Virus record (IMG/VR): IMGVR_UViG_3300036770_002544
Location: 10,654 to 74,653 of that record
Direction: 5' to 3' (one strand)
Origin: a virus
Lineage: Duplodnaviria > Heunggongvirae > Uroviricota > Caudoviricetes
Length of the DNA stretch: 64,000 nt
Under the pieces are notes generated by a model that worked only from the letters and a program-made list of their open reading frames with translations, did no database searches and was not told the origin of the DNA. Position numbers and translations under genes: made by a program. Shown here in pieces: positions 1,124-19,693 of the stretch. Position 1 is the stretch's first letter. Each line of letters opens with the position of its first letter.

Positions 1124-1152
1124 TTGACAATAAATTCATAGTTTGCTACAAT
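1124..1152 (+). promoter_or_regulatory. sigma70-type promoter (TTGACA-N17-TACAAT)
   Basis: ttgacaataaattcatagtttgctacaat. It precedes a roughly 800-nt ORF-poor, GC-richer stretch and the tRNA array. Confidence 0.45.
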
Positions 1153-1961
1153 AGATACATGTTAAGAAATTAACAAAACAGAAAAGTTGTTCGCTGTAAA
1201 GAAAACACTCGTGCTAGTCCTGAAAATTTGCGGTAATGATTATAATCCGCGAGCATGGACCTGCTAATCATTGTTCTTTAAAAATTTCGGCTAAGATTTT
1301 TTCTTAGCATTGTTGAGCATACTGACTTTGCTTAACCTCTATCTCAGTATACATGAGAATAAGTTAAGTAAGGCTCGTGAGACCAACGCTAGAGGATGGG
1401 AAGATTGTTACCTACCCCAAAAGCGTCTAAACAATCTGTGGTTCAGTGTGTTCAACAATGTTAAGATGTTAAGATTTTAAGGGCAGTTTATTGTCCTGTA
1501 GCGTATGGTTCGCCCAGCGTTACGAAGAATAAGTCGAGTGATCGACCCAAAGGAGGTAAGCCTACGCAACTCCGCCAGCAATGGTTCGTGTAAACAAGCC
1601 TGCTCACTGCCGCGAGGCAGCGTTCACTGATAAGACCGGTGGATGTATATGTGAAGCAAGTGTAGTGGAAAGAATGTCTGCTCAAGCGCCAGCAATGGTA
1701 ACGCAAGTGGATAGAGAGAAACAGGTGGTGCTGTCCTCACTACAAAACCAACTTGTCAGCAAGTATGAGAAAGGGTAGTGTTATGATCCGAGGAGTCGCT
1801 CCCAAGGGTTGTAGTGCATTGTTAGTGGTTAGTGGGTATAGCAATATACACACCGGTCGCAAAACAACACTGAGTAGTCCGCGAGACAAAAGGTATTTGG
1901 TGAGTTGTATTGGGTAGAGCAAAACTTTATTCAGCAACTGAGTCAGCTCATCAAGGTAGGT

Positions 1962-2034
1962 TCAGTTATAGCACAATTGGTAGTGCATCTCCCTGTTAAG
2001 GAGACGGCTGAAGGTTCAACTCCTTCTAACGTTT
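1962..2034 (+). tRNA. tRNA-Asn(GTT)-like, weak acceptor stem (possible pseudo-tRNA)
   Basis: D-arm gcac/gtgc. Anticodon arm ctcc-CTGTTAA-ggag. T-arm gaagg-TTCAACT-ccttc. The acceptor halves do not pair well. Confidence 0.45.
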
Positions 2035-2453
2035 AAAAAGCAAAGACTGACTCGGTTATCAGTGAAAAGCATCTAATGCTTGACACGCAAGTGAATCAAG
2101 TCCATCGTAGCTCGCAAGGCGAAAGTGGTTTGTACTAGAAGTTTCGTAAGGTGTTAGCGCACTTGAATGGCTCGCAAGGTCAACGGAGAAGAAGGTACAG
2201 AGTAACTGGTAACGACAAGCCTACTGCCTGGCTTTAAAAACGGCGATGCTGACAACAGACAGTGATACCGCAAGGGTTGCTGTGGATGTCGAGAGAAGGT
2301 ATGCTCGCAAGGTGTACTATAATGCTCGAGGTGTTGTTGGCTTAAGGTGTAATCTCAACCTTAGGCACTATTATAAAACACATTACTAAGAGTCCAGGTT
2401 CAGAGCGTGGCATAGTGTGTTTCATAATAGTTATAAATAACTGTAACAAATTG

Positions 2454-2530
2454 ACGCGGTGTGTTAGAAGTGGTATCTGGCCAGGCTCATAACCTGGAGA
2501 TCGGAGGTTCGAATCCTTCCACCGCAACCA
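2454..2530 (+). tRNA. tRNA-Met/Ile2 (CAT)
   Basis: Anticodon arm ccagg-CTCATAA-cctgg. T-arm ggagg-TTCGAAT-ccttc. 3' end caccgca-a-CCA. Confidence 0.6.
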
Positions 2531-2577
2531 AATTCTGGCGTGTTGTATAAATACAACACTTGAAAAACAAATCGTGG

Positions 2578-2606
2578 TTGACACGAGAAGGTAAATAAAG
2601 TACAAT
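2578..2606 (+). promoter_or_regulatory. sigma70-type promoter (TTGACA-N17-TACAAT)
   Basis: ttgacacgagaaggtaaataaagtacaat. The roughly 185-nt unit it drives ends at the hairpin terminator at 2769-2797. Confidence 0.5.
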
Positions 2607-2768
2607 AGGACTTATGATGAAACACACAAAACATTCACAGTTGAACTCTACAATGTGCCAAGCGCAAGCCTGGTCACGTGGGTTTACGATTGTGAATAGT
2701 ATTCCCGGTAGTCAAGGGTCCGTTGGAGACAAAGTGTAACCTAAAAGTACACTAAGAATCTAAAAGGA

Positions 2769-2797
2769 CCCTGGAACTAAAAACTCCAGGGTTTTTC
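2769..2797 (+). terminator. rho-independent terminator
   Basis: ccctgga-actaaaaac-tccaggg followed by ttttt. Confidence 0.7.
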
Positions 2798-2983
2798 ATT
2801 TTAGTGCAAGGCAACGCGAGCCTGTATCACTTTAAACTACAAATGGGCGGCCTGTAGGATGAAGCACTTCTTGTAGTGTGAAAAATTACAGCGTATCGAA
2901 GCATTTTCAGGCCGCAAGGCAAGTGGGTTCATCCATGTAGAATGCTTCGATACACACATTGGAAACAGTGTGTTAAAAATTAT

Positions 2984-3058
2984 GGGCTGTAGGTGTTGTT
3001 GGGGGCACACGGGCTTTGCAAGCCTGGAGGAACGGTTCGATCCCGTTACGGTCCACCA
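2984..3058 (+). tRNA. tRNA-Ala(TGC)
   Basis: Acceptor gggctgt/acggtcc with G:U pairs. D-arm gtgt/acac. Anticodon loop TTTGCAA. T-arm aacgg-TTCGATC-ccgtt. CCA encoded. Confidence 0.7.
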
Positions 3059-3065
3059 TAATTGT

Positions 3066-3139
3066 ATCTCGCTGGTGTAATGGCAGCATAGCGGTCTCCA
3101 AAACCGTTGGTCGGGGTTCGAGTCCCTGGTGGGATGCCA
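3066..3139 (+). tRNA. tRNA-Trp(CCA)
   Basis: Acceptor atctcgc/gtgggat. Anticodon arm gcggt-CTCCAAA-accgt. T-arm cgggg-TTCGAGT-ccctg. Ends in gCCA. Confidence 0.65.
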
Positions 3140-3181
3140 AGTTTGGTTGTAGTCGCAGGTTCGAGTCCTGCCCGCTGGTCA
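3140..3181 (+). pseudogene. tRNA 3'-half fragment (T-arm plus acceptor remnant)
   Basis: gcagg-TTCGAGT-cctgc T-arm with no matching 5' half. It shares a cgctggt direct repeat with the preceding tRNA. Confidence 0.35.
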
Positions 3182-3193
3182 AGTTAAAAGCAG

Positions 3194-3216
3194 CCGCGGT
3201 AGTTTAGAGGTAAAAC
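3194..3216 (+). pseudogene. tRNA 5'-half fragment
   Basis: gccgcggtagtttagaggtaaaac resembles acceptor plus D-arm (compare the tRNA-Phe 5' end gccgcggtagctca). No downstream anticodon or T arms. Confidence 0.3.
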
Positions 3217-3233
3217 AACACCATTTTTATTGT

Positions 3234-3308
3234 AGGGGGTTCGCCAAGTGGTAAGGCATCTGATTTTGATTCAGACATCCGGTGGTTCGATCCCATCACC
3301 CTCTGCCA
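3234..3308 (+). tRNA. tRNA-Gln(TTG)
   Basis: Acceptor agggggt/accctct. D-arm gcc-aagtggtaa-ggc. Anticodon arm tctga-TTTTGAT-tcaga. T-arm ggtgg-TTCGATC-ccatc. gCCA. Confidence 0.7.
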
Positions 3309-3315
3309 AAAATTT

Positions 3316-3340
3316 AGCCGTGTAGCTCAGAGGAAGAGCA
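3316..3340 (+). pseudogene. tRNA 5'-half fragment immediately upstream of the HNH gene
   Basis: gccgtgtagctcagaggaagagca equals acceptor plus D-arm. No anticodon or T arms follow. Confidence 0.35.
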
Positions 3341-3381
3341 AATCGTATGCAGAGCATAAATACATGTAAGGAGTGCTCTGT

Positions 3382-3762
3382 ATGAAAGCAGTATGTAAAA
3401 CATGCAAAAATGAATTTGTAGTTGGAAGAAGTTCTACCGGAAAGTATTGTTCGTTAACTTGTTCAAAAGTAGGACAATCAAACGACCGTAGGCAAAACTT
3501 TTTAGAAGGTAAAATGACTAGCCGTGCACTCATGAAAGTTCATATGACTGACATACACGGCTGGAAATGTATGTGTTGTAATAATACTGAGTGGAACAGT
3601 AAGCCTATACCACTCGAATTAGATCATATCGACGGTAATGCAGGAGATAATAGGCCACAAAATTTAAGATTACTGTGTCCAAATTGTCATGCGCAAACGC
3701 CAACACATAAAGCAAAAAATAAAGGAAACGGAAGAGGTAGTCGAGGTCTTCCGTGGTATTAA
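3382..3762 (+). CDS. HNH homing endonuclease
   Basis: HNH motif ELDHIDGNAGDNRPQNLRLLCPNCHA plus N-terminal Cys pairs. SD taaggag 9 nt upstream of the ATG. Confidence 0.8.
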   Translation: MKAVCKTCKNEFVVGRSSTGKYCSLTCSKVGQSNDRRQNFLEGKMTSRALMKVHMTDIHGWKCMCCNNTEWNSKPIPLELDHIDGNAGDNRPQNLRLLCPNCHAQTPTHKAKNKGNGRGSRGLPWY

Positions 3763-3763
3763 C

Positions 3764-3828
3764 ACCAGGTTAGCTCAGTGGTAGAGCAGCGGCTTGATAA
3801 GCCGTTGGTCGCAAGTTCAAATCTTGCA
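3764..3828 (+). tRNA. tRNA-Ile(GAT)
   Basis: Perfect acceptor accaggt/acctggt. D-arm gctc-agtggtag-agc. Anticodon arm gcggc-TTGATAA-gccgt. T-arm gcaag-TTCAAAT-cttgc. aCCA. Confidence 0.8.
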
Positions 3829-3834
3829 CCTGGT

Positions 3835-3930
3835 ACCAAACAATCCACTGTAGGCTTGGACGCCCGGAATGCATGCGCCGAAGAGACGGTTCGATTCCGT
3901 CCTTGGATAAACCAGGTTCGATCCCTGGAC
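3835..3930 (+). tRNA. atypical roughly 95-nt tRNA-like RNA with two T-arm-like hairpins (class II tRNA, composite or pseudo-tRNA)
   Basis: Perfect 7-bp acceptor ccactgt...acagtgg. Two hairpins gacgg-TTCGATT-ccgtc and ccagg-TTCGATC-cctgg. No clean anticodon arm was found by eye. Confidence 0.35.
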
Positions 3931-3943
3931 AGTGGGCCTTTTT

Positions 3944-4014
3944 ATTCCGCAGAATCCGAGCTAGGTGCACGGACTTGACTGTTAATCAATGATTAGCTGG
4001 GTTCGAACCCCAGA
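3944..4014 (+). tRNA. tRNA-Asn(GTT)-like, degenerate acceptor and D arms
   Basis: Anticodon hairpin ttga-CTGTTAA-tcaa. T-arm ctggg-TTCGAAC-cccag. 3' end atgcgga-g-CCA. The 5' acceptor pairs only 5 of 7. Confidence 0.4.
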
Positions 4015-4018
4015 TGCG

Positions 4019-4094
4019 GAGCCAAACATGGGGGCAGCAGAGGGCTGCGGTGATCCCTTGCAAGGATCATGACTACAAGGGTTCGATACCCTGG
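4019..4094 (+). tRNA. tRNA-Ala(TGC)-like second copy, imperfect acceptor
   Basis: Anticodon arm gatcc-CTTGCAA-ggatc. T-arm aggg-TTCGATA-ccct. Ends ggcctcc-a-CCA. Confidence 0.45.
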
Positions 4095-4123
4095 GCCTCC
4101 ACCAAATAAGCAGATGACGTTTC

Positions 4124-4131
4124 TGCTCTTT
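4124..4131 (+). promoter_or_regulatory. TATAAATA box (T4-type late-promoter-like)
   Basis: tataaata lies 29 nt upstream of the 4160 ATG. A second copy sits at 2432-2439 upstream of a tRNA. Confidence 0.3.
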
Positions 4132-4159
4132 TGTATAAATAAAACAAAGGAGATCGAGC

Positions 4160-4546
4160 ATGAACGTTAATCAAAAGGGCAACATAGGCTTGCTAAAAGT
4201 CATAGGAGACTTGTATAATAAAGGCTACACAGTGTTTAAGCCTTTTGACGATTACAATCCAGTTGACTGTATTGCGATGAACGCAGAAGGCAAGACATTT
4301 AGATTACAGGTGAAGTATCGCAGTCCCGATCGAGATGACTCGTACGAGATTTCTGCTTCATCTATGGTAAATGGTAAGAGAGCACAAATTAACCGCGGAC
4401 TCATTGATTATTGGGCTGTATACCTGTCAGATTTAGACCAGGTAGTGTACATGCCGATAAGTATGATGGAAGGTAAAAAAGTTCACTACATTACCAGAAA
4501 ACAATTAGGTGAGATGGATGAGAGGTTGAAATCGGCACCCTGCTAA
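4160..4546 (+). CDS. hypothetical protein (possible small PD-(D/E)xK-like nuclease)
   Basis: RBS aaggagatcgagcATG. The 3' end overlaps the 5' half of tRNA-Ser by about 38 nt. Confidence 0.5.
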   Translation: MNVNQKGNIGLLKVIGDLYNKGYTVFKPFDDYNPVDCIAMNAEGKTFRLQVKYRSPDRDDSYEISASSMVNGKRAQINRGLIDYWAVYLSDLDQVVYMPISMMEGKKVHYITRKQLGEMDERLKSAPC

Positions 4547-4599
4547 GGTGTTTTCTTAGGAAACTAGGGACGTGGGTTCGAATCCCACTCTCACCACCA
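4508..4599 (+). tRNA. tRNA-Ser(GCT), class II
   Basis: Acceptor ggtgaga/tctcacc. Anticodon arm gcacc-CTGCTAA-ggtgt. Long variable arm. T-arm gtggg-TTCGAAT-cccac. aCCA. Confidence 0.8.
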
Positions 4600-4629
4600 A
4601 TTCGAAGTCTAGCAAACTTCAAAGTTTTC

Positions 4630-4703
4630 GCCCCTGTAGTTAAATGGTAGAACATCGGTTTTGTAATCCGAGGACGGGAGTTCGATTCTCTCTAGGGGCA
4701 CCA
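4630..4703 (+). tRNA. tRNA-Thr(TGT)
   Basis: Acceptor gcccctg/taggggc. D-arm gtt-aaatggtag-aac. Anticodon loop TTTGTAA. T-arm gggag-TTCGATT-ctctc. aCCA. Confidence 0.7.
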
Positions 4704-4710
4704 AATTTAT

Positions 4711-4786
4711 TCCTCAGTAGCTCAGTTGGTAGAGTAGCGGACTGTTAATCCGTTGGTCGCTGGATCGTGCCCAGCCTGGGGAGCCA
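4711..4786 (+). tRNA. tRNA-Asn(GTT)
   Basis: Acceptor tcctcag/ctgggga. D-arm tagctcagttggtagagta. Anticodon arm gcgga-CTGTTAA-tccgt. T-arm gctgg-ATCGTGC-ccagc. gCCA. Confidence 0.85.
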
Positions 4787-4794
4787 AACAAAAT

Positions 4795-4870
<76 letters not shown>

Positions 4871-4876
4871 GGATCA

Positions 4877-5909
4877 GATGTATACTCTAGACTTTTGCGA
4901 AGTTTATATCACTAATGTATGCAATTTAAATTGCACTCATTGTAATCGTTTTAATAATTTTGCTTTTGCAGGACACTCGCGGTGGGAAGATTACCAGCAC
5001 GATTACCAGCAATGGGCAAAAAAAGTAAATTTTAACAGTATCAGTATCCTTGGTGGAGAACCGTTATCCAACCCTGATTTTTTAAATTGGATGCATGGTA
5101 TTGCCACCGTGTGGAACAGTGCAGAAATATCTATTCTCACCAATGGGACACAGTTAGATAGATGGCCCAGTTTGTACAAAGAAATAAAAAAATACAACGG
5201 TCGTGTCACTGTTGTTATAAGCGAACATAGTCCGCAGCACTGGCTTGATGCCATTGGCAATGTAAAAAATTTTTTGCAAGGAACAATAGAAAATCAGGAA
5301 CATAAAACTTGGAAACAGTCTTATGATTCGATCAAAGATTCGTCATGGCCCGACTGCAATACCCCTGATGATTTTTATACCTTGCCTGAGCACATTCAAA
5401 CCGAATGTCAAACAGTGTTTAACATACACCCAACAAACAATGAATTTTCAGCCACCAGCGAGCGTGTTCATTTTTACAAAGACTCTAACAATGTAAAAAT
5501 TCTACTAGAGCCAAGTTGGATGTTTAAACCTAATGCATTGATATACCAAAGCACAAATCAAATTGATTTATACAACAGTGATCCAGAAAAAGCAATAAAA
5601 GCATGCACCATGAAAAAATGTCCGCAGTTCAGTCGCGGCAAACTTTACAAGTGCCCGCCGGTGACTGTGCTAGGTGATTTCATACAGCAATTCTCAATCA
5701 ATGTGTCTGACGCTGATAAGCAACTGATAGATGCGTATAAGCCTGCGTCACACTGTTGGCCTGATGATCAACTTAAGAAATTTTTAGATGATTTAACAGA
5801 TTTAAAAACAATCCCACAATGCAAGTTTTGTCCAGAAGAACTTCCATTTATTAAGTTTTCAGCTGGGACTAAAAAAATCAAACTGTTAAAAAAACAAAAC
5901 TTATCATAA
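4877..5909 (+). CDS. radical SAM protein with C-terminal Cys-rich (SPASM/twitch-like) region
   Basis: CNLNCTHC Cx3Cx2C at residues about 15-22. Extra Cys pairs near the C-terminus (CTMKKCPQF, CKFCPE). The table ORF 4767 start runs through tRNAs; the true start is taken as ATG 4877. Confidence 0.7.
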
Positions 5910-5913
5910 AAAA

Positions 5914-5989
<76 letters not shown>

Positions 5990-6038
5990 AACAAGCCTAC
6001 ACTCAATCCTGCCGCGATGACAGTCCCTGGGCTTTTAC

Positions 6039-6117
6039 ACCACTTTAGCTCAGTTGGACTTAGAGCACTGTGCTACGAACGCAGGGGTCGGGAGTTCGAA
6101 TCTCTCAGGTGGTACCA
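6039..6117 (+). tRNA. tRNA-Arg(ACG)
   Basis: Acceptor accactt/aggtggt. D-arm gctc/gagc. Anticodon arm ctgtg-CTACGAA-cgcag. T-arm gggag-TTCGAAT-ctctc. aCCA. Confidence 0.85.
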
Positions 6118-6242
6118 TTTTGTAATACTTGTGTTTGCCAAAAAGGTAAACCAAAGTATACATTTTTCGGGGCTCGGACGTTTTACAGCGATTCTTTTCT
6201 GCAGAACGTACAAAGATCCACAAGCAAGTAAAACAACAGCAA

Positions 6243-6271
6243 TTGACTCAAAATGACATCTGTTGTATAAT
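6243..6271 (+). promoter_or_regulatory. sigma70-type promoter (TTGACT-N17-TATAAT)
   Basis: ttgactcaaaatgacatctgttgtataat, upstream of the tRNA-Lys pair. Confidence 0.5.
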
Positions 6272-6379
6272 ACATTTTTAATTAGGAACATTGACATGAA
6301 ACGTTCAGCGAAACGATAGTGTCGTCTCAGTACCCTGTATGGTCTGGGATGGCACGTAAAAGACAATTTTTACATCCAT

Positions 6380-6454
6380 CCCTTTGAGATGTTAAGGCAG
6401 CATGCCGGACTCTTAATCCGTGACGTGTGGGTTCGACTCCCACCAGAGGGACCA
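6380..6454 (+). tRNA. tRNA-Lys(CTT)
   Basis: Acceptor ccctttg/cagaggg with G:U pairs. Anticodon loop CTCTTAA. T-arm gtggg-TTCGACT-cccac. aCCA. Confidence 0.7.
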
Positions 6455-6458
6455 TATA

Positions 6459-6535
6459 GGGTTGATAGTTTAATGGCTAAAACATCCGGCTTTTAACCGG
6501 TAAGAGTCAGGGTTCGAATCCCTGTCGACCCACCA
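6459..6535 (+). tRNA. tRNA-Lys(TTT)
   Basis: Acceptor gggttga/tcgaccc. Anticodon arm ccgg-CTTTTAA-ccgg. T-arm caggg-TTCGAAT-ccctg. aCCA. Confidence 0.85.
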
Positions 6536-6668
6536 TATAAAAACATTTTTGACGGGCATCATCGCCAACGCATAGTCGCGGTGCTCTGTTCGGTGACCCT
6601 GGCAGGTTGCGAAAATCTATTGTGCCAGCAATAAGAGAATTATTGAAAATGTTTCTATATGGTATTAT

Positions 6669-6743
6669 GGAGTCGTTAGTTTAGTGGTAAAACCGCGGGT
6701 TGTGATTCCGCTATCACGGGTTCGATTCCCGTACTTCTCCCCA
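6669..6743 (+). tRNA. tRNA-His(GTG) with G-1
   Basis: Anticodon arm gcggg-TTGTGAT-tccgc. D-arm gtt-tagtggtaa-aac. T-arm acggg-TTCGATT-cccgt. 3' end acttctc-c-CCA with an extra 5' G. Two internal acceptor mismatches. Confidence 0.65.
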
Positions 6744-6744
6744 A

Positions 6745-6819
6745 GGTGATATGACGTAGACGGATGCGTAGCGGTTTCATAAGCCGACGAGGTTGGGTCG
6801 GTACCAACTATCACCACCA
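6745..6819 (+). tRNA. tRNA-Met(CAT)-like with non-canonical T-loop
   Basis: Perfect acceptor ggtgata/tatcacc. Anticodon loop TTCATAA. T-arm gttgg-GTCGGTA-ccaac lacks TTC. aCCA. Confidence 0.55.
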
Positions 6820-6820
6820 C

Positions 6821-6895
6821 CGGTCCTTATTTCAATGGATAGAATGCCATGCTTCGAACTTGGCGATGTGGGTTCGATTCCTGCAGGACCGGCCA
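6821..6895 (+). tRNA. tRNA-Arg(TCG), anticodon assignment tentative
   Basis: Perfect acceptor cggtcct/aggaccg. Anticodon loop CTTCGAA. T-arm gtggg-TTCGATT-cctgc. gCCA. Confidence 0.55.
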
Positions 6896-6938
6896 AATGA
6901 TTTGTTAGTGCTGTATATGAACGAATAAATATTTTTTT

Positions 6939-7703
6939 ATGACTATTACTAAATTCACTACTGCACAACAACAGCTTTTGAAATTTGTATTAACGTGTGT
7001 CTCTTCTGTGCTGGGTATCTATGTATACCTAATACTAGGCGGCACCTTACTCAAGGCATTTCTGATATATCTATGTTTTGTATTAGTATCTAGAGTTGCA
7101 AACCTAGGTTATCATAGATGGCTGGCACACAACTTGTTAGAACCTGATTTGTTTGGTAGAATTTTTATACTATGGTGTATGGTAAGTTCGGCGTTAGTGA
7201 AGCCTTTGCCCTATGTCATAGGTCATAGACTGCATCACAAATATTCAGACACTGATAAAGATCCTCATCATCCCGGACTAGGGTTATGGGCTTGCTTGAT
7301 AGGAAACTTTAATGTCGTTGAAAACTTAACAATACCAGTAAAAGATTTGTATAGAAAAAAAGAAGTAATGTTTGTCAATAGATATTACTATCAATTATAT
7401 CTTGCAAACTTGCTATTGTTTTGGTTCATTGACAAAGATATAGTGCTACTAAGTTTCTCACTGTTAAACTTGCGTATGTGGGTCAACATAACTGTGTTCA
7501 ACTATCTTGCACACGGAGGTAAGCACGGAAAATCTCCTAAAAATTTGCCAGCCTGGACTAGTTACGTGTTAGGATATTCGGGAGAACAGTTACACAAAAA
7601 TCATCATGATGATCCTTCGTCTAGCGATTTTGGTAAATTGTCAAGATGGAATTTTGATATCATGTACAAAGTGTACAGCAAAATAGTCAAAGTTAAAAAT
7701 TAA
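6939..7703 (+). CDS. membrane fatty-acid (acyl-lipid) desaturase, delta-9-like
   Basis: Three His boxes HRWLAH, HRLHH, HKNHH. Multiple hydrophobic segments. Confidence 0.8.
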   Translation: MTITKFTTAQQQLLKFVLTCVSSVLGIYVYLILGGTLLKAFLIYLCFVLVSRVANLGYHRWLAHNLLEPDLFGRIFILWCMVSSALVKPLPYVIGHRLHHKYSDTDKDPHHPGLGLWACLIGNFNVVENLTIPVKDLYRKKEVMFVNRYYYQLYLANLLLFWFIDKDIVLLSFSLLNLRMWVNITVFNYLAHGGKHGKSPKNLPAWTSYVLGYSGEQLHKNHHDDPSSSDFGKLSRWNFDIMYKVYSKIVKVKN

Positions 7704-7752
7704 CACTCGGTGATTTCTGTACTACTATTAATCATAGTGTAGGTTATCATCT

Positions 7753-7781
7753 AGTTGACAACAAAACAATCTGCTGTTATA
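7753..7781 (+). promoter_or_regulatory. sigma70-type promoter (TTGACA-N17-TATACT) with palindrome over the -10
   Basis: ttgacaacaaaacaatctgctgttatact. gctgt-tatacta-cagc inverted repeat. Upstream of tRNA-Val. Confidence 0.5.
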
Positions 7782-7818
7782 CTACAGCATGTTCTTTAAA
7801 AATTAAGTTTGATAGTTT

Positions 7819-7903
7819 GCCCCTGTAGCTCAGTGGTAGAGCATCGCTTCGACAAAGCGAGGGTCGGTGGATCGTTCCCACCCAGTGGTACCAGTGTTAT
7901 TTA
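7819..7903 (+). tRNA. tRNA-Val(GAC)
   Basis: D-arm gctc-agtggtag-agc. Anticodon arm tcgct-TCGACAA-agcga. T-arm ggtgg-ATCGTTC-ccacc. cagtggt-a-CCA. Confidence 0.75.
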
Positions 7904-8088
7904 CACTGAGAATCTATCCAGGCCAGTGCCGACATCATGTTGGTAAAATAGCGCATGGTAAGTTTTTCATCGTAAATATCATTGACAAAGATGTAACAAG
8001 CGTCAGCAGTGTCGTTAACTGATAGGTGTATATGCATGTATCCGTTGGCAACTATGAAGTCTCGTGTTTGCATATTTTTATTTATTTT

Positions 8089-8162
8089 GCGGGATTGGCA
8101 TAAGGGTTGTGCAGTAGCCTTCCAAGCTACCCATAGCGGTTCGAGACCGCTATCCCGCTCCA
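8089..8162 (+). tRNA. tRNA-Gly(TCC)
   Basis: Perfect acceptor gcgggat/atcccgc. Anticodon arm gtagc-CTTCCAA-gctac. T-arm agcgg-TTCGAGA-ccgct. tCCA. Confidence 0.8.
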
Positions 8163-8169
8163 CAATTTA

Positions 8170-8244
8170 GGGTGATTAGCTCAGCGGTAGAGTCGCTGCC
8201 TTACACGCAGTTTGTCGGGAGTTCGATCCTCTCATCACCCACCA
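8170..8244 (+). tRNA. tRNA-Val(TAC)
   Basis: Acceptor gggtgat/atcaccc. D-arm gctc-agcggtag-agt. Anticodon arm gctgc-CTTACAC-gcagt. T-arm cggga-GTTCGAT-cctct. aCCA. Confidence 0.85.
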
Positions 8245-8252
8245 ACTTATTT

Positions 8253-8330
8253 CCGAGTGTAGCGCAGTCTGGTTAGCGCATCTGCTTTGGGAGCAGAGGG
8301 TCGTAGGTTCGAATCCTACTACTCGGACCA
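8253..8330 (+). tRNA. tRNA-Pro(TGG)
   Basis: Acceptor ccgagtg/tactcgg. D-arm gcgc-agtctggtta-gcgc. Anticodon arm tctgc-TTTGGGA-gcaga. T-arm gtagg-TTCGAAT-cctac. aCCA. Confidence 0.85.
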
Positions 8331-8337
8331 ATTCAAT

Positions 8338-8415
8338 GTACAGGTGGCAGAGTGGCCCAATGCAAGGGATTGCAAATCCCTAAAGCCGTCGGTTCAAATC
8401 CGACCCTGTACTCCA
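8338..8415 (+). tRNA. tRNA-Cys(GCA)
   Basis: Acceptor gtacagg/cctgtac. Anticodon arm aggga-TTGCAAA-tccct. T-arm gtcgg-TTCAAAT-ccgac. tCCA. Confidence 0.8.
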
Positions 8416-8420
8416 TCTAA

Positions 8421-8510
8421 GGAAGCGTGGTCGAGTGGTCTATGGCTCCGGTCTTGAAAACCGGCGATTACGAAAGTGGTCCGTGAGTTCGAATCTCACC
8501 GCTTCCACCA
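8421..8510 (+). tRNA. tRNA-Ser(TGA), class II
   Basis: Acceptor ggaagcg/cgcttcc. Anticodon arm ccggt-CTTGAAA-accgg. Long variable arm. T-arm gtgag-TTCGAAT-ctcac. aCCA. Confidence 0.85.
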
Positions 8511-8515
8511 TATAT

Positions 8516-8591
8516 GCCGCGGTAGCTCATCAGGTAGAGCAGCAGACTGAAAATCTGTGTGTGGCTGGTTCGAGTCCAGCTCGTGGCACCA
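8516..8591 (+). tRNA. tRNA-Phe(GAA)
   Basis: Acceptor gccgcgg/tcgtggc. D-arm tagctcatcaggtagagca. Anticodon arm gcaga-CTGAAAA-tctgt. T-arm ctggt-TCGAGTC-cagc. aCCA. Confidence 0.85.
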
Positions 8592-8592
8592 A

Positions 8593-9234
8593 TCAATGTC
8601 TATTAGGATCTCGAGTTTTTTCAAACTCTGGCACATGTTCGTTGCAACCAGGAAACCATGCTGGGGCAGGTGGAAGATCACACACTTCTCTAGTGAGATC
8701 TATCAACAAAATGAGACGCCGCTCTGAAGTGTTGTTCCAAACACTATGCAACTTTTGATTGTTGAAAGAAAAGACATCATCCCATAGTACAATTTCGTTT
8801 TCAACTTCGAAACCAATGTCGCCATCAGGAACGTACAAAGGAATATGGATGCGAATGCTTTTGGCATCTCTGTTTTCTATGCCAGTGTGTCTGTAAATAA
8901 TAGAGTTGGGTTCTACAATACTGTAACCAGCTAGGTGGCAGTGTTGTCCAAAAGCTTCAACTAATGAAAATGCAGTGGGATACCGAAGTCTATTGGATTC
9001 TGCAAGAACTCCTGATATATGTTTGATGCCTGATATTTTCCAGGCATTTTCTTTATCGTACAAGGTAGAATTTTGTCCAGTAGGATTTTGACGGTAAGGC
9101 ACGCTAGTAAATTTTTCTCCCGACTGGAAGTCTGGGTGCGCTTTGACAAAGTCTGCAAGTAAAGCAGGTTGTAACGCTCTAAACAATGCAGCAAATTTAA
9201 CTTCGTCGCCGCGATAGATATTTTTAAGTTCCAT
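8593..9234 (-). CDS. aspartyl/asparaginyl beta-hydroxylase-family (AspH-like, 2OG-Fe oxygenase cupin) protein
   Basis: Motif HTGIENRDAKSIRIHIPL matches the AspH H-x-G...N...R-x-H-x-PL signature. Paralog of 10868-11545. Confidence 0.6.
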   Translation of the reverse strand: MELKNIYRGDEVKFAALFRALQPALLADFVKAHPDFQSGEKFTSVPYRQNPTGQNSTLYDKENAWKISGIKHISGVLAESNRLRYPTAFSLVEAFGQHCHLAGYSIVEPNSIIYRHTGIENRDAKSIRIHIPLYVPDGDIGFEVENEIVLWDDVFSFNNQKLHSVWNNTSERRLILLIDLTREVCDLPPAPAWFPGCNEHVPEFEKTRDPNRH

Positions 9235-9291
9235 AGATACTTTCTTTAAAAATATTTATTGATCGTTATGGTACATTTATAATTTAACATT

Positions 9292-9366
9292 GTCCCTGTA
9301 GTTCAATGGATAGAACCGGTTCCTCCTAAGAACAAAATATCAGTTCGATTCTGGTCAGGGATACCA
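9292..9366 (+). tRNA. tRNA-Arg(CCT)
   Basis: Acceptor gtccctg/cagggat. D-arm gttcaatggatagaac. Anticodon loop CTCCTAA. T-arm atcag-TTCGATT-ctggt. aCCA. Confidence 0.75.
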
Positions 9367-9371
9367 AGCAT

Positions 9372-9448
9372 GCCCTGGTGGTGGAATTGGCAGACACACT
9401 GCGTTGAGGTCGCAGGTTCTACGGGTTCGAGTCCCGTCTAGGGTACCA
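9372..9448 (+). tRNA. tRNA with anticodon GAG (Leu-decoding) but short variable loop
   Basis: Acceptor gccctgg/ctagggt. Anticodon arm ctgcg-TTGAGGT-cgcag. T-arm acggg-TTCGAGT-cccgt. aCCA. At 77 nt it lacks the class II long arm expected of bacterial tRNA-Leu. Confidence 0.65.
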
Positions 9449-9802
9449 AGTTTTGTAGTAACCAGAGTCCTGTGTAAAAGGTGTTGCGGACGTCATGCGC
9501 TCTTTTTATCGCATGGGTCAATAAAGATCGAAGCGCAAACTAATAAGGTTGTGTCCTTGCCTACTACAGATTAGTTTTGCAAACAATAAAAACGTGTAGG
9601 GGTAATACCCCTTGAAGCTCTGTGCAGAGATGCACATCTTCTATGGATCAGTTGGTGGGATGAGAGGTCCTTCCCTGTTGCCGGTGTCAAGAGTTATCCA
9701 TTGTGGGAGCCGGAGTGCCAACCCAGGTCGATAGTTTACAGCCACACGCCCTAGCGAAACCGGATTGTTTGCAATTTTTTATTGTTGTTGAGAAGAAAAG
9801 AA

Positions 9803-10018
9803 ATGTATAAAATAGCAGAAAAAGAATTTGCCAATCTGGAGTTGGCAATGGCACATGCCAGGCAGTTAAATGAGTTTGTAACTATTGCTGGACCCGACTT
9901 TGAAGTTTGTGGCCGCTTTGGGGTAGATAGCGTTGAACGCGGGCTGTGCCCTGATGGTATTGCATACGATTGGAACAAGGCCAGTCGTACAGGTCGCGTA
10001 CAACGCGAACGAGTCTAA
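9803..10018 (+). CDS. hypothetical small protein
   Basis: ORF following a roughly 330-nt structured noncoding stretch. Weak RBS. Confidence 0.3.
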   Translation: MYKIAEKEFANLELAMAHARQLNEFVTIAGPDFEVCGRFGVDSVERGLCPDGIAYDWNKASRTGRVQRERV

Positions 10019-10108
10019 CGGAGGGTTAACTGGGCTGGGCCCAGCACTGTCTCGAAAACAGATGGACTGTGAAAACGGTTGGAGTTCGATTCTGCCATCC
10101 CTCTTCCA
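10019..10108 (+). tRNA. tRNA-like element (Ser CGA-type loop) with non-canonical T-arm
   Basis: Acceptor ggagggt/tccctct-t-CCA. Hairpin ctgt-CTCGAAA-acag. D region ctggg-ctgggc-cccag. The T-arm does not fold canonically. Confidence 0.3.
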
Positions 10109-10113
10109 ATTTT

Positions 10114-10184
10114 TGGCTCACTCTAGCTGATCTTGCGGGGTCCAAACTCTCAAGTCTCGGGTGCGATTCCTGAAGGGCCAGCCA
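10114..10184 (+). tRNA. tRNA-like element (acceptor plus T-arm only clearly foldable)
   Basis: Acceptor tggctca/agggcca-g-CCA. T-arm tcggg-TGCGATT-cctga. No clear anticodon arm. Confidence 0.3.
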
Positions 10185-10241
10185 TATACCGGTTTACACA
10201 AAACCGTAATATCAAGTATAATATATACTTGTGCAACCAAT

Positions 10242-10318
10242 GCCCCTGTGATGGAATTGGTATACGTGTCGGATTCAAAATCCGAATTTTGCGGGTTCGA
10301 GTCCCGCTGGGGGCACCA
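10242..10318 (+). tRNA. tRNA with anticodon CAA (Leu-decoding), short variable loop
   Basis: Acceptor gcccctg/tgggggc with G:U pairs. Anticodon arm tcgga-TTCAAAA-tccga. T-arm gcggg-TTCGAGT-cccgc. aCCA. Confidence 0.6.
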
Positions 10319-10333
10319 TTTTATAGAAAGACC

Positions 10334-10807
10334 ATGATGAAGAAAATCGATCTAGAACAAGTACGCCAGTTTATTGAAGCACAAACACCAGAAACAAAAA
10401 TCTATCTGGGTTGTGACTCCGAACGTCTGCGTGTCGACGGCCGTTGGTATGCCGATTATATTCTAGCGATTGTTGTTCACATCAATGGCAACAACGGTTG
10501 TAAGATTTTCGGCGAAGTACATCGTGAACCGGTGTGGGATGCCAAGCCAGGCAAGCCAAGTATGCGTCTTATGACCGAAGTGTACAAAGTCAGCGAACTG
10601 TATCTCAAGTTAGCAGAAGTGTTAGAAGGTCGACAAGTCGAAGTTCACTTGGACATCAACCCCGACGAACACTATGGATCAAGCTGTGTTATTAGCCAAG
10701 CTGTGGGCTACATCAAAGGCACTTGCAACGTGGTTCCGTTCGTCAAGCCACATGCGTTTGCTGCTAGTTATGCTGCTGACCGATTCAAGGGTTTGAGAGC
10801 AGCCTAA
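10334..10807 (+). CDS. hypothetical protein
   Basis: ATG immediately after the tRNA. The table ORF 10133 start runs through the tRNA, so the internal Met start MMKKIDLEQ is taken. Followed by a strong terminator. Confidence 0.5.
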   Translation: MMKKIDLEQVRQFIEAQTPETKIYLGCDSERLRVDGRWYADYILAIVVHINGNNGCKIFGEVHREPVWDAKPGKPSMRLMTEVYKVSELYLKLAEVLEGRQVEVHLDINPDEHYGSSCVISQAVGYIKGTCNVVPFVKPHAFAASYAADRFKGLRAA

Positions 10808-10867: not shown

Positions 10868-11545
10868 TTATTGCTGACAACTATGTAACATCTTGGGCAG
10901 TTGTCCTCGTACAAAATCTGGTACATGTTGATACCGAGTTACATCAGTTTTTATTCCCGGTTCAAGCCCCAGCACATCACGATGAAGGTCTAGCAAGTAG
11001 ACCAATCTGCGATGATCAGTATAATTGTATGCACTGTGTATGAACTGATTGTCAAACGCAAACAAATCTGACCAATCAATCTCTACGCCTTCAACTTCAA
11101 AGAAAATATCGCCAGGTGGCACTATCAACGGTATGTGTATTCTCACATACAGTCCATCTCTGTTTTCTACGCCGGTATGTCGTGAAATCACTGCATTATG
11201 CTCTAAGATACTGTAGGTGCTAACTGGGCAGGCATCGCCATATTTTTCAGTTAGTGCAACTGCTGTGGGGAAACGTTCTCGAATATCGTTGTGTTTGGTC
11301 TTGTCTATGACCAAATTGTGTCGAGGATTGGTATATTTTAATGGATCAACTTTCCAAGCATCGGGCCTGCTTTTGTAAGGATCGGTACTGAATATTGGGT
11401 TTTGATATGGGACACCTTTGGCAAAGTCGCCTTGAACAAAGTCAGTGTGGTAGGCCAAAAACTCTTCTAGTAGTTTAGGTGCTAGGGCTAGTAACTCGTC
11501 GGCTATTGGGATTTCTTCTCGGAGCCATATAGATTTTCTTGTCAT
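10868..11545 (-). CDS. aspartyl/asparaginyl beta-hydroxylase-family protein (paralog)
   Basis: HTGVENRDGLYVRIHIPL motif. Roughly 45 percent identical by eye to the 8593-9234 product. Confidence 0.6.
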   Translation of the reverse strand: MTRKSIWLREEIPIADELLALAPKLLEEFLAYHTDFVQGDFAKGVPYQNPIFSTDPYKSRPDAWKVDPLKYTNPRHNLVIDKTKHNDIRERFPTAVALTEKYGDACPVSTYSILEHNAVISRHTGVENRDGLYVRIHIPLIVPPGDIFFEVEGVEIDWSDLFAFDNQFIHSAYNYTDHRRLVYLLDLHRDVLGLEPGIKTDVTRYQHVPDFVRGQLPKMLHSCQQ

Positions 11546-17793: not shown

Positions 17794-18138
17794 ATGCGTC
17801 TCGAAAAAAGTGTTGCTGTTGCAGTTGAATTTGCTGAAAAAGTTGCTCTGGCTCGAGTGCGATTTAAAAATGCAAAACTTTCCCAAATGGATATGGATTG
17901 GTACGAATCAAAATGGAAAACATTTTCAAATTCTGCCGAAGTAGATCACATGCTCAACACGTTAACTGATGCTTTATCGTTGTATTGGGACGTTGATCAG
18001 GAACTAAAATTAGACCCTACAAATTTAAAATTATTTTTAAACAGGGCAGAAATGACCAGACAAATTAGCAAAATTAGGCACAAGTTATTTTTGTTAGCAT
18101 CTGATGCTAACACAAACAAAGCATCAGATGGCATATGA
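17794..18138 (+). CDS. hypothetical protein
   Basis: ORF. Confidence 0.4.
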   Translation: MRLEKSVAVAVEFAEKVALARVRFKNAKLSQMDMDWYESKWKTFSNSAEVDHMLNTLTDALSLYWDVDQELKLDPTNLKLFLNRAEMTRQISKIRHKLFLLASDANTNKASDGI

Positions 18139-19693
18139 TTGTATTATTTTTACAGATGTAACTTACACAAATCTGGTGTATAAGCCAATGGGTGCTTATA
18201 AGTTAGCAAATCATCTGAGATCCAGTGGGTACAGTTGTTTAGTAGTTGATCATTTTCATACTTTTACTCAGCAGCAAATTTTAGATATTATTGCTGCGTC
18301 AGTAGGACCAGAAACTAAATTTGTTGGGTTTAGTATTGCTTTCTTCAATAGTGTAGAAGGTACTAATCCAATGGATCCGATATCTGATAATACCTATAAA
18401 CCGTTAGAATATAATCAATCGTTTTGTCCGCAAGGACAGGCATTTGAAATTGCATTGGTCTCTGCCATTCACGATATCAACAGCCATTGCAAAATAGTAT
18501 TAGGTGGTGCGGCCAGGATCAGCAATCAGATTAAAAATCCCAGGGTAGATTACGTGATTTCGGGATTCGCCGAAGTTGCTATATTAGATTTAGTGCATTC
18601 TTTGGAGCTTGGTCAGGTTCCGGGTACAGCAGTAAAAAATATATGGGGAACGCACATCATAGATGGTGGATCAGCTGAGTCATTTGACTATCAGCACAGC
18701 GAGATGGTATGGCAACCCGAAGATGTGGCTGGTATAAAAGTTTTACAACTCGATGTATCTCGTGGCTGCAAATTTAACTGTACTTTTTGCGACTGGAGCA
18801 TGCGTGGTACCAAGAATAACAAATGGACACGCGAAATAGACGTTCTTGCTTCAGAACTTCAGCGCAATTATGATCAGTATGGCATATATCGATACTTTGT
18901 ACATGACCATACTTTTAACGAAAGTGACTACAAACTCAATGTAGTCAAACAAGCAGTCAAACAATTAACATTTCAGCCCATCATCTGGTGTCACGTCAGA
19001 CCAGATTTACTAGTTAAATACCCCAACCGTACTGATACCATGTACGAAGTTGGTGTCAGGAGCATGATGATGGGTATCGAGACCCTGGACCCAGATGTGG
19101 CCAAAACTGTAGGCAAAGGTCTTGCACCAGAAAAAATCATTGCTGAATTAAAAAATATTCAACAACGCTACGGCAACGAGTTGTTGACCCATGGTAATTT
19201 TGTCATTGGCTTACCAGGCGAATCTATTGACAGTGTTCTTGCTACCGCTGCACGATTAGAAAACGGAGATATTTCGTTGCACCATTGGAGCTACAATGCA
19301 TTGATGATCAGCACAGATCATAACAATTGGTGGGGGTCTACATACGAACAAGATCCGGCCAGATACGGCTACACAGAAAACAAAAACACAATCACGACAG
19401 GATTTAATATTGATTATAGAAAAAATTCACTGATGAACTGGCGCAATGATCATATGACCTTTGAACAAGCTATGCATCTGAACAAAAAGTTATACGACTC
19501 GGCAGCCGATAACCCAGCCTATCTGGTAGACAGCATGGTCAGTTGGGCATTGATGGGTTTCACTGACCTAGACTTTAAAGGCATACAGAAGTTGCGTCCC
19601 CGGGATATTGATTGGTTTTCAGTGTCCAAGCAACGATTGCACTATCTATACGATTACAAGAAAAATATAATTAAACATGTGCACGGTAAATAA
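18128..19693 (+). CDS. radical SAM protein with N-terminal B12-binding-like domain (class B-like)
   Basis: CKFNCTFC Cx3Cx2C at about residue 210. The N-terminal region is Rossmann-like. Confidence 0.65.
   Translation: MAYDCIIFTDVTYTNLVYKPMGAYKLANHLRSSGYSCLVVDHFHTFTQQQILDIIAASVGPETKFVGFSIAFFNSVEGTNPMDPISDNTYKPLEYNQSFCPQGQAFEIALVSAIHDINSHCKIVLGGAARISNQIKNPRVDYVISGFAEVAILDLVHSLELGQVPGTAVKNIWGTHIIDGGSAESFDYQHSEMVWQPEDVAGIKVLQLDVSRGCKFNCTFCDWSMRGTKNNKWTREIDVLASELQRNYDQYGIYRYFVHDHTFNESDYKLNVVKQAVKQLTFQPIIWCHVRPDLLVKYPNRTDTMYEVGVRSMMMGIETLDPDVAKTVGKGLAPEKIIAELKNIQQRYGNELLTHGNFVIGLPGESIDSVLATAARLENGDISLHHWSYNALMISTDHNNWWGSTYEQDPARYGYTENKNTITTGFNIDYRKNSLMNWRNDHMTFEQAMHLNKKLYDSAADNPAYLVDSMVSWALMGFTDLDFKGIQKLRPRDIDWFSVSKQRLHYLYDYKKNIIKHVHGK

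Follow-up and report, generated by a model that had tools for sequence, protein, structure and literature searches.

The 64-kb window analysed here, the stretch of IMG/VR virus record IMGVR_UViG_3300036770_002544 from position 10,654 to 74,653, carries a long array of tRNA genes in which regular copies are mixed with others that appear incomplete, and the question this raises is whether the odd copies are the debris of damaged genes or elements that have been kept as they are. A first-pass annotation had described a roughly 30-member tRNA array with degenerate duplicates, tRNA halves and an HNH endonuclease gene, and had taken the whole as a case of disruption, duplication and decay caused by the endonuclease. 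The reading preferred here, to which a probability of about 0.85 is given, is that an uncultivated phage carries its tRNA island here, with a GOLLD RNA at the head and two cassettes, each made up of an endonuclease gene and a tRNA gene, that have remodelled it. The phage is probably a jumbo phage, because related IMG/VR viral contigs reach 424 kb. Both for GOLLD and for phage tRNA islands that house free-standing homing endonucleases, all the defining features that can be tested are found at this locus. The arrangement itself is known; the new leads are the constrained loop of a tRNA mimic within GOLLD, the junctions of the cassettes, a set of permuted tRNA-like modules, and a structured RNA at 2812–2975.

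The tRNA genes were called with ARAGORN, at its default and at a relaxed threshold, and with Rfam covariance models; the related loci referred to by L-numbers are GOLLD loci fetched from IMG/VR with two conserved motifs. At its default ARAGORN finds 26 tRNA genes, all on the plus strand between 2455 and 10318, and none elsewhere in the window. Rfam adds a gene with a CAT anticodon at 6745–6816, and relaxed ARAGORN adds a GTT gene at 3946–4024 and a CGA gene at 10020–10104, giving a total of 29 cloverleaf genes, in agreement with the size first stated for the array (Table 1). Nearly all of the 29 encode CCA, and Asp, Glu and Tyr are the isotypes that are missing. There are indeed two copies of Ala(TGC), at 2984 and 4029, in both of which G3.U70 can be read from the sequence, but two CAT tRNAs (2455 and 6745) rather than the three that had been claimed. 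The acceptor mismatch seen in the tRNA at 2455 is real, being C1xA72, but it is not a defect, as this mismatch is a hallmark of bacterial initiator tRNA.

At the head of the array is a GOLLD RNA that the first-pass annotation had not recognised: the Rfam model of GOLLD (RF02032) matches 1897–2361 over its full length (1–416 of 416), with a score of 213.4 bits (threshold 150, E ~1e-59). In nhmmer searches the homology to the nearest GOLLD relatives, which are 77–83% identical, begins at 1468–1472 and stops at 2384, which would make the GOLLD RNA ~0.9 kb in length. The less conserved 5' domain, 1468–1896, has its counterpart ahead of the Rfam-type match in at least 13 GOLLD loci. The relatives found by nhmmer numbered ~40 GOLLD loci at first and more than 100 later, every one of them within a tRNA array. 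Homology to L082 and L024 begins at 1115, ahead of the GOLLD promoter, and tRNA-Met begins 94 nt downstream of GOLLD. The segment between the two, 2362–2454, has 7–8 matches in related loci, with single matches covering ~2362–2444.

GOLLD has been described from phages, near tRNA islands, as an RNA that forms a 14-mer cage with its linker on the inside, the linker sometimes holding tRNAs (PMC12286853); cage assembly has been seen by cryo-EM for GOLLD env-38 only (PMC12286853). It is among the largest bacterial and phage RNAs without a known function, and the formation of a cage by RNA only is a recent result. The GOLLD in the window resembles those of other phage and prophage tRNA islands in its match to the full model, its position at the head of the array, the tRNA-shaped insert in its linker, and the tRNA-Met that follows. 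It differs from the solved env-38 RNA, the linker of which is short and disordered, whereas in this GOLLD, as in at least 90 distinct relatives, the linker folds into a tRNA mimic that lacks a complete acceptor stem. A horizontally transferred cluster of 32 tRNAs in Mycobacterium also includes an HNH gene and a GOLLD with a pseudo-tRNA inside it (PMC6582537). The array in the window is similar to it in having ~30 tRNA genes, a GOLLD with such an internal 'pseudo-tRNA', and an HNH endonuclease, and differs in that it is viral by its relatives, that it adds a PD-(D/E)XK endonuclease, and that its insertion junctions can be mapped.

The linker insert is the first of two Asn(GTT) copies that had been described as degenerate, with broken acceptor stems. 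Its annotated span, 1962–2034, falls in what is an unstructured linker in the Rfam model of GOLLD, and the domain is called by ARAGORN at the relaxed threshold only. Relatives carry a tRNA-shaped insert at an equal offset from the 3' end of GOLLD. Covariation was counted in 17 distinct aligned GOLLD linkers, on a cloverleaf whose acceptor is a stub of 4 bp, and compared with 500 shuffles and with controls in which the structure was slid along the alignment. In the 17 relatives 97.4% of the cloverleaf cells are paired, compared with 34–47% in the slid controls, and there is compensatory change in 15 of the 18 cloverleaf pairs, including all 4 pairs of the stub, which was equalled in 0 of the 500 shuffles. 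The stub is mostly 4–5 bp across 90 distinct linkers. This is therefore not a degenerate copy of a tRNA-Asn gene but an integral, covarying domain of GOLLD. Its D, anticodon and T arms are normal, but with 4 acceptor pairs and no CCA it falls short of a functional tRNA, which means that it cannot be charged. On this comparison of sequences the domain is a selected, built-in tRNA mimic, the product of design and not of decay.

Its anticodon loop is constrained. Anticodons of the form N-N-U are present in 79 of 82 distinct linkers that have a canonical anticodon arm (GUU 44, UUU 22, CUU 5, UCU 4, AUU 2, GAU 1, UGU 1), and the loop reads YU-N-UUAA, an Asn- or Lys-type loop, in 72 of 82, as it does at 1996–2002 in the window; the sequences are related, so these counts are not of independent events. 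There are near-identical linker backbones that differ solely at position 34. No description of the YU-N-UUAA constraint was met in the GOLLD literature searched. In one large GOLLD subfamily, a constrained anticodon loop in a linker that faces inward narrows the search for the ligand of the GOLLD cage, in a domain that tRNA finders label as tRNA or pseudo-tRNA. One reading, which is put forward as unlikely, would have the GOLLD of this phage group be a cage holding 14 unchargeable tRNA decoys that bind or soak up a host factor reading the YU-N-UUAA loop. The target of such decoys might then be an anticodon nuclease directed against tRNA-Lys or tRNA-Asn, or a modification enzyme, either of these being just as speculative, and with no greater likelihood the orphan permuted modules, at 3145–3224 and in the linker of L018, could be a second family of mimics.

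The HNH gene can be placed by what it displaced. As had been recorded, its stop lies 1 nt ahead of tRNA-Ile at 3764, and folding confirms the hairpin that was noted around its Shine-Dalgarno sequence (SD), with 9 bp at 3349–3381. Ahead of this hairpin is a stub, 3315–3345, in which 25–26 nt are 100% identical to the starts of the Ile(GAT) genes in L180, L152 and L149; identity to Ile(GAT) in L134, L126, L162 and L156 is 96–100%. Read from the sequence, the match to L152 can be followed as far as nt 31 if one extra base in the window is allowed for. The match stops at the start of the anticodon loop, directly after which comes the hairpin of the HNH 5' untranslated region, and the full Ile(GAT) gene is intact in seven relatives. 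Comparison with related phages thereby places the insertion of the HNH gene, with its junction at nt 31 of a resident Ile(GAT) gene.

Locus L149 is partly colinear with the window, having Met, a conserved 450-nt segment, Ala, Trp, Gln, Ala, Ile(GAT), Asn-like and Ser(GCT), in that order, where the window has Met, the 450-nt segment, Ala, Trp, 3140–3233, Gln, the stub 3315–3345, HNH, Ile(GAT), 3839–3945 and Asn-like. At the HNH site L149 has the intact Ile(GAT) and no HNH gene, which is a presence/absence polymorphism. The Ile(GAT) that follows HNH in the window (3764–3838) differs from the resident type of the relatives, and in L117, which has the closest HNH homolog (64.6% identical over its full length), the same SD hairpin precedes the gene and Ile(GAT) comes 8 nt after it. 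The stub, the intact site in L149 and the hairpin-HNH-Ile layout in L117 together indicate that the mobile unit is the hairpin, the HNH gene and tRNA-Ile, and that, as the aligned loci have it, this unit has taken the place of the resident Ile(GAT) gene from nt 32 onwards. Homologs of the HNH gene occur in many related tRNA arrays, and that in L015 ends exactly at a class II tRNA-Tyr. Upstream of the L015 homolog, at ~1620–1700, a degenerate, tRNA-like element with a Tyr anticodon and without a long arm can be read in the sequence; L015 is a second instance of an HNH gene that has an intact tRNA on one side and, on the other, a remnant or variant with the same anticodon.

The second endonuclease gene, of the PD-(D/E)XK type (4160–4546), had been overlooked in the first-pass annotation, and it overlaps tRNA-Ser(GCT) by its final 39 nt. 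In L159 the Ala gene with the small D loop (93.5% identical) is followed by ATTTTC and then by the matching Thr(TGT), leaving a spacer of 6 nt, where the window has 525 nt between Ala and Thr, made up of a hairpin, the endonuclease gene, tRNA-Ser and 30 nt. From the alignment of these two loci, PD-(D/E)XK and tRNA-Ser(GCT) are a clean insertion into the 6-nt Ala-Thr spacer. Sequence searches of the PDB with the HNH endonuclease and with the PD-(D/E)XK endonuclease gave no significant match.

Both cassette insertions are established by comparison with other loci, from which cleavage by the enzymes may be presumed. The two exact junctions identify endonuclease-plus-tRNA cassettes as units of change in phage tRNA arrays, and such units would account for differences in tRNA order from one relative to the next; the order is indeed shuffled among the GOLLD relatives, which fits cassette traffic. 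In the mechanism proposed, the endonucleases would cut the cassette-free tRNA arrays of co-infecting relatives, and repair would copy in the cassette together with its tRNA allele, which presumably is not cut by the enzyme. Five near-consensus sigma-70-type promoters are predicted from the sequence. These would drive runs of CCA-encoding tRNAs, which host RNase P and 3' processing would then release, and the first transcription unit would consist of the ~0.9-kb GOLLD followed by the initiator-like tRNA-Met. By analogy with the solved GOLLD, the tRNA mimic would sit inside the 14-mer cage.

There is a known system of this kind in phage T4, where the homing endonuclease SegB, encoded in a tRNA cluster, recognises a motif in the T arm and drives the inheritance of this region (PMC2330249). 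As with SegB, the genes here lie between tRNA genes, are present or absent among relatives, and are inherited together with adjacent tRNAs. SegB is a GIY-YIG enzyme, whereas those of the window are predicted to be HNH and PD-(D/E)XK. Unlike segB, each endonuclease gene in the window abuts or overlaps the tRNA downstream, and the HNH insertion truncated a resident gene for the same tRNA.

The second Asn(GTT) copy that had been called broken, at 3944–4014, was given a span that missed its 3' end. The true element, 3946–4024, is under the default ARAGORN and Rfam tRNA thresholds, and has 6 of 7 acceptor pairs, the loop CUGUUAA, and a GCCA end equal to that of the canonical Asn at 4711. Its homologs in L024 and L039 have double changes that preserve the pairing of the acceptor and D stems. 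Judged from these features it is a complete and conserved, if non-canonical, tRNA-Asn, with the properties expected of a tRNA gene. The Ser(CGA)-like gene, 10020–10108, scores 36.6 bits with the Rfam model of tRNA-Sec, below the threshold of 47, and its homolog in L114 is 88.5% identical. Conserved non-canonical tRNAs such as the second Asn and the Ser(CGA)-like gene are thus overlooked by tRNA finders at their default settings.

It had been seen correctly that Leu(GAG) and Leu(CAA) have no class II long arm. Both are 77 nt in length, with 5-nt variable loops, GTTCT and ATTTT. They are like class II bacterial tRNA-Leu in their D arm, GTGGTGGAATTGGCAGACAC, which the class II Leu tRNAs of related phages share exactly, in A73, and in their anticodons, and differ from it in the reduction of the long variable arm to 5 nt. 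Leu tRNAs of 77–78 nt recur in several related arrays. Since they are conserved in relatives, the short-arm Leu tRNAs are probably in use. The leucyl-tRNA synthetase (LeuRS) of E. coli is not known to need the long arm of tRNA-Leu.

There were also said to be three tRNA halves, at 3140–3181, 3194–3216 and 3316–3340, and all three are tRNA-derived. The last lies in the Ile(GAT) stub, and the other two fall within a permuted tRNA-like module, 3145–3224, which is extra sequence at a place where L149 and L156 have a spacer of 8–9 nt between Trp and the next tRNA. On the other side of the HNH cassette, 3839–3945 looks like nested tRNA fragments: it folds without an anticodon arm, it has only T-arm-sized matches elsewhere, and ARAGORN, run on it with introns or with very low thresholds, makes inconsistent calls. 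There is no homolog of 3140–3233, 3346–3381 or 3839–3945 in ~200 related loci. That 3140–3233 and 3839–3945 flank the HNH cassette and are without homologs fits local scars, as would be expected. The segment 3193–3233 was also considered as a remnant of a tRNA-Gln of the L149 type, for which no claim is made, the D arm alone being similar.

It is possible, although doubtful, that 3145–3224 is no scar but a functional, discrete, permuted mimic of tRNA, which tRNA processing would cut from between Trp and Gln. With equal reserve, it might be seen as a tRNA elbow with a capped acceptor helix, analogous to the YrlA module and to a module in the GOLLD linker of L018. The acceptor strands of 3145–3224 do pair (7 bp, with one bulge), and it has a closing stem of its own, GGUUGU/ACAACACC, at both ends of the insert, inside what would be a typical spacer. 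There are 7 distinct orphan modules of equal layout in 1.84 Mb compared with 0 in reversed-sequence controls, of which that within the GOLLD linker of L018 has a T arm identical to that of 3145–3224, and in the module family of L130, L131 and L167 the loop UUGGUC is constant while the hairpin covaries. Against this, the module itself lacks a homolog in the ~200 loci, its minimum-free-energy fold is equal to that of shuffles (z = 0.01), and it adjoins the known scar field. Furthermore, the scan for the permuted layout also yields 34 chance matches at tandem tRNA junctions (2018 predicted tRNAs), and a covariance model (R1) built from the permuted module gives, beyond its training sequences, scores of 40.6 bits at most, which is the level of junctions. 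The heterogeneous permuted modules could not be aligned with MAFFT. That 3127–3249 is a YrlA-type Y RNA, binding Ro60 (Rsr), is extremely improbable. The module does share with YrlA (PMC4201824) a T arm, a closed acceptor-like hairpin and a D arm, with the ends paired where an anticodon stem would be, and the Rfam model YrlA (RF02553) aligns to these three parts with 28.6 bits (E 0.011 in 14 kb). This is far under the threshold of 69, however, and the outer helix that binds Ro has no pairing in its columns, which lie within the tRNAs on either side, leaving the module without a Ro-binding helix or motif. The same model scores 28–33 bits at ordinary tandem tRNA junctions, an artefact of such searches about which the YrlA authors themselves caution (PMC4201824). 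In the 11 open reading frames (ORFs) of the window that are at least 400 aa there is no Pfam match to TROVE, and rsr is not among them. Membership in YrlA was rejected on the sub-threshold score, the lack of the Ro helix and the junction-level score.

As an account of all the odd copies (1962–2034, 3944–4014, the halves and the short-arm Leu tRNAs), duplicates decaying after endonuclease damage are distinctly unlikely, even though the stub 3315–3345 is a true remnant, and 3140–3233 and 3839–3945 are specific to this genome and adjoin the HNH cassette. Disruption driven by the endonuclease thus stands for the vicinity of the HNH gene, at the stub, but not for the conserved elements: 1964–2032 covaries as part of GOLLD, 3946–4024 is found in 16 loci with compensatory changes and has retained its CCA, and the short-arm Leu tRNAs are conserved, one being 97% identical in L161. 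For these, conservation and covariation refute decay. Very unlikely too is the possibility that the DNA belongs not to a phage but to a bacterial chromosome or plasmid that gained the tRNA array by horizontal transfer. Mycobacterial genomes share the layout of GOLLD, HNH and tRNA cluster (PMC6582537), and phage structural genes were not identified in the window, but the relatives retrieved are without exception viral contigs of IMG/VR, the longest being 424 kb, and the PHROGs matches of the window are to HNH, ATPase and other accessory genes, with zero to structural ones. Several points do weigh against a phage island with a GOLLD cage and two mobile cassettes. Its phage origin rests on the IMG/VR relatives and on gene content, and megablast and tblastn searches against cultured phages gave no close relative, only tRNA-sized matches. 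The cage is known from a different GOLLD RNA, with a short, disordered linker. The 310 nt from the promoter (1152) to the start of GOLLD (1468) are kept in few relatives only, so that the 5' end given here is approximate. The HNH target site is deduced from a single junction, and the remaining HNH homologs (35–48% identity) adjoin different tRNAs. Nor does the island reading account for the origin of 3145–3224 and 3839–3945.

Some features of the permuted modules can be added. The orphan modules are at 4770–4832 in L018 (also in L077), 1631–1693 in L079, 4937–4990 in L130, 7934–7987 in L131 and 2003–2056 in L167, and also occur in L005/L052. The module in the GOLLD linker of L018 has ACCA in the loop of its hairpin. 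As in the permuted tRNA genes of red algae, the 3' half of 3145–3224 comes before the 5' half and the two are joined at the acceptor ends. It departs from genes of the red-alga type in that joining the processed ends would, by sequence reading, give a loop of ~16 nt and not an anticodon loop of 7 nt.

In the segment 2578–2975 both the small ORF at 2614–2739 and the structured RNA at 2812–2975 had been missed in the first-pass annotation. The ORF comes with a consensus promoter of its own, at 2578–2606, and with a strong terminator-like hairpin. The RNA is placed between the terminator-like hairpin and tRNA-Ala and has no Rfam match at E<5. As modelled from the alignment, 2812–2975 is a candidate for a new RNA motif of GOLLD-type tRNA arrays.

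Table 1. Coordinates of the features of the GOLLD-headed tRNA island in the 64-kb window
Coordinates	Strand	Feature	Evidence
1124–1152	+	sigma-70-like promoter, TTGACA-17-TACAAT	11/12 consensus match, TG extension
~1468–2384	+	GOLLD RNA (5' domain ~1468–1896; Rfam-modelled 3' part 1897–2361)	Rfam; homology to IMG/VR GOLLD loci
1964–2032	+	tRNA-like domain, Asn-type loop CUGUUAA, 4-bp acceptor stub, no CCA	Rfam tRNA 57 bits, model positions 4–67 only
2370–2428	+	putative conserved hairpin directly after GOLLD	coordinates from a chance-level mir-3 match and sequence reading
2455–2530	+	tRNA-Met(CAT), initiator-like C1xA72	ARAGORN; Rfam 51.5 bits; mismatch read from sequence
2578–2606	+	sigma-70-like promoter	11/12 match; GGTTGAC and TA.AAT columns invariant in 10 loci
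2614–2739	+	small conserved ORF, 41 aa	3-nt indels, VNSIPG-type motif; tblastn 44–60% identity in 7 loci
2767–2803	+	intrinsic-terminator-like hairpin and T run	sequence reading; nearly invariant in 10 loci; terminator scan lists minus strand only
2812–2975	+	conserved structured RNA, ~165 nt	RNAalifold, 13 loci: 26 pairs, 18 with compensatory change
2984–3058	+	tRNA-Ala(TGC)	ARAGORN, Rfam
3066–3139	+	tRNA-Trp(CCA)	ARAGORN, Rfam
3145–3224	+	permuted tRNA-like module: closing stem, T arm, closed acceptor-like hairpin, D arm	minimum-free-energy fold
3234–3308	+	tRNA-Gln(TTG)	ARAGORN, Rfam
3315–3345	+	tRNA-Ile(GAT) remnant, nt 1–31: acceptor 5' strand, D arm, anticodon-stem 5' strand	match to relatives
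3349–3381	+	9-bp hairpin enclosing HNH Shine-Dalgarno sequence and spacer	fold; GAGCA...SD...TGCTC also before L117 HNH homolog
3382–3762	+	HNH homing-endonuclease gene	Pfam HNH_3 and HNH above cut-offs; PHROGs HNH E 1e-24
3764–3838	+	tRNA-Ile(GAT), allele moving with HNH	75.4 bits, top-scoring tRNA in array
3839–3945	+	composite of tRNA fragments: outer 7-bp helix CCACTGT/ACAGTGG, two T-arm hairpins	fold
3946–4024	+	non-canonical tRNA-Asn(GTT), 11-nt D loop, GCCA end	relaxed ARAGORN; homologs in 16 loci
4029–4104	+	tRNA-Ala(TGC), small D loop	ARAGORN; homologs in 13 loci
4105–4629	+	inserted cassette: hairpin, PD-(D/E)XK gene, tRNA-Ser(GCT)	comparison with L159
4160–4546	+	PD-(D/E)XK endonuclease gene	Pfam PF11645 E 1.7e-14; phrog_5018
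4508–4599	+	tRNA-Ser(GCT)	ARAGORN, Rfam
4630–4703	+	tRNA-Thr(TGT)	ARAGORN, Rfam
4711–4786	+	tRNA-Asn(GTT), canonical	ARAGORN, Rfam
4795–4870	+	tRNA-Gly(GCC)	ARAGORN, Rfam
5914–5989	+	tRNA-Thr(GGT)	ARAGORN, Rfam
6039–6117	+	tRNA-Arg(ACG)	ARAGORN, Rfam
6380–6454	+	tRNA-Lys(CTT)	ARAGORN, Rfam
6459–6535	+	tRNA-Lys(TTT)	ARAGORN, Rfam
6670–6743	+	tRNA-His(GTG)	ARAGORN, Rfam
6745–6819	+	CAT-anticodon tRNA, perfect acceptor stem	Rfam 39 bits vs threshold 29; relaxed ARAGORN
6821–6895	+	tRNA-Arg(TCG)	ARAGORN, Rfam
7819–7893	+	tRNA-Val(GAC)	ARAGORN, Rfam
8089–8162	+	tRNA-Gly(TCC)	ARAGORN, Rfam
8170–8244	+	tRNA-Val(TAC)	ARAGORN, Rfam
8253–8330	+	tRNA-Pro(TGG)	ARAGORN, Rfam
8338–8415	+	tRNA-Cys(GCA)	ARAGORN, Rfam
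8421–8510	+	tRNA-Ser(TGA)	ARAGORN, Rfam
8516–8591	+	tRNA-Phe(GAA)	ARAGORN, Rfam
9292–9366	+	tRNA-Arg(CCT)	ARAGORN, Rfam
9372–9448	+	tRNA-Leu(GAG), 5-nt variable loop	ARAGORN; 97.4% identical copy in L161
10020–10108	+	tRNA-Ser(CGA)-like, divergent class II: 8-bp acceptor, 6-bp D stem, CCA	relaxed ARAGORN
10242–10318	+	tRNA-Leu(CAA), 5-nt variable loop	ARAGORN

Further into the array, the non-coding spacers 6239–6371, 6537–6664, 7898–8085 and 9551–9780 are conserved in 3–23 related loci. The first of these spacers has a near-consensus promoter at 6243–6271, and there are weaker promoter-like matches, with 9–10 of 12 positions, at 6291–6320 and 6549–6576. The central part of 6537–6664 may be a small RNA.

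The window is unusually rich in radical SAM genes, of which the run at 47182–55787 holds five, three of them with SPASM domains; the coordinates recorded for these and the other enzyme genes named below are 9–1112, 4878–5909, 18104–19693 and 47182–55787, and also 8593–9234 and 10868–11545. Two of the radical SAM genes were used as anchors in IMG/VR and metagenomes and led to distant relatives, of 27–50% identity, without tRNAs or GOLLD, and look-ups of exact proteins gave either no match or one contig of 1.4 kb. Further genes of the window encode a carbamoyltransferase, two Asp/Asn beta-hydroxylase-like proteins, and a MoxR-type ATPase together with a VWA protein.

Towards the end of the array and beyond it, a 78-aa ORF at 9782–10018 on the plus strand has matches in 8 related loci with 37–64% identity, and an RNase H-like protein (PF04308), encoded at 10340–10807 on the same strand, is ~71% identical in L020, L023 and L038. 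Elsewhere among the related loci, there is a permuted, two-piece tmRNA gene at 8196–8535 in L018, which scores 150 bits with the alpha_tmRNA model and 124 bits with tmRNA_permuted.

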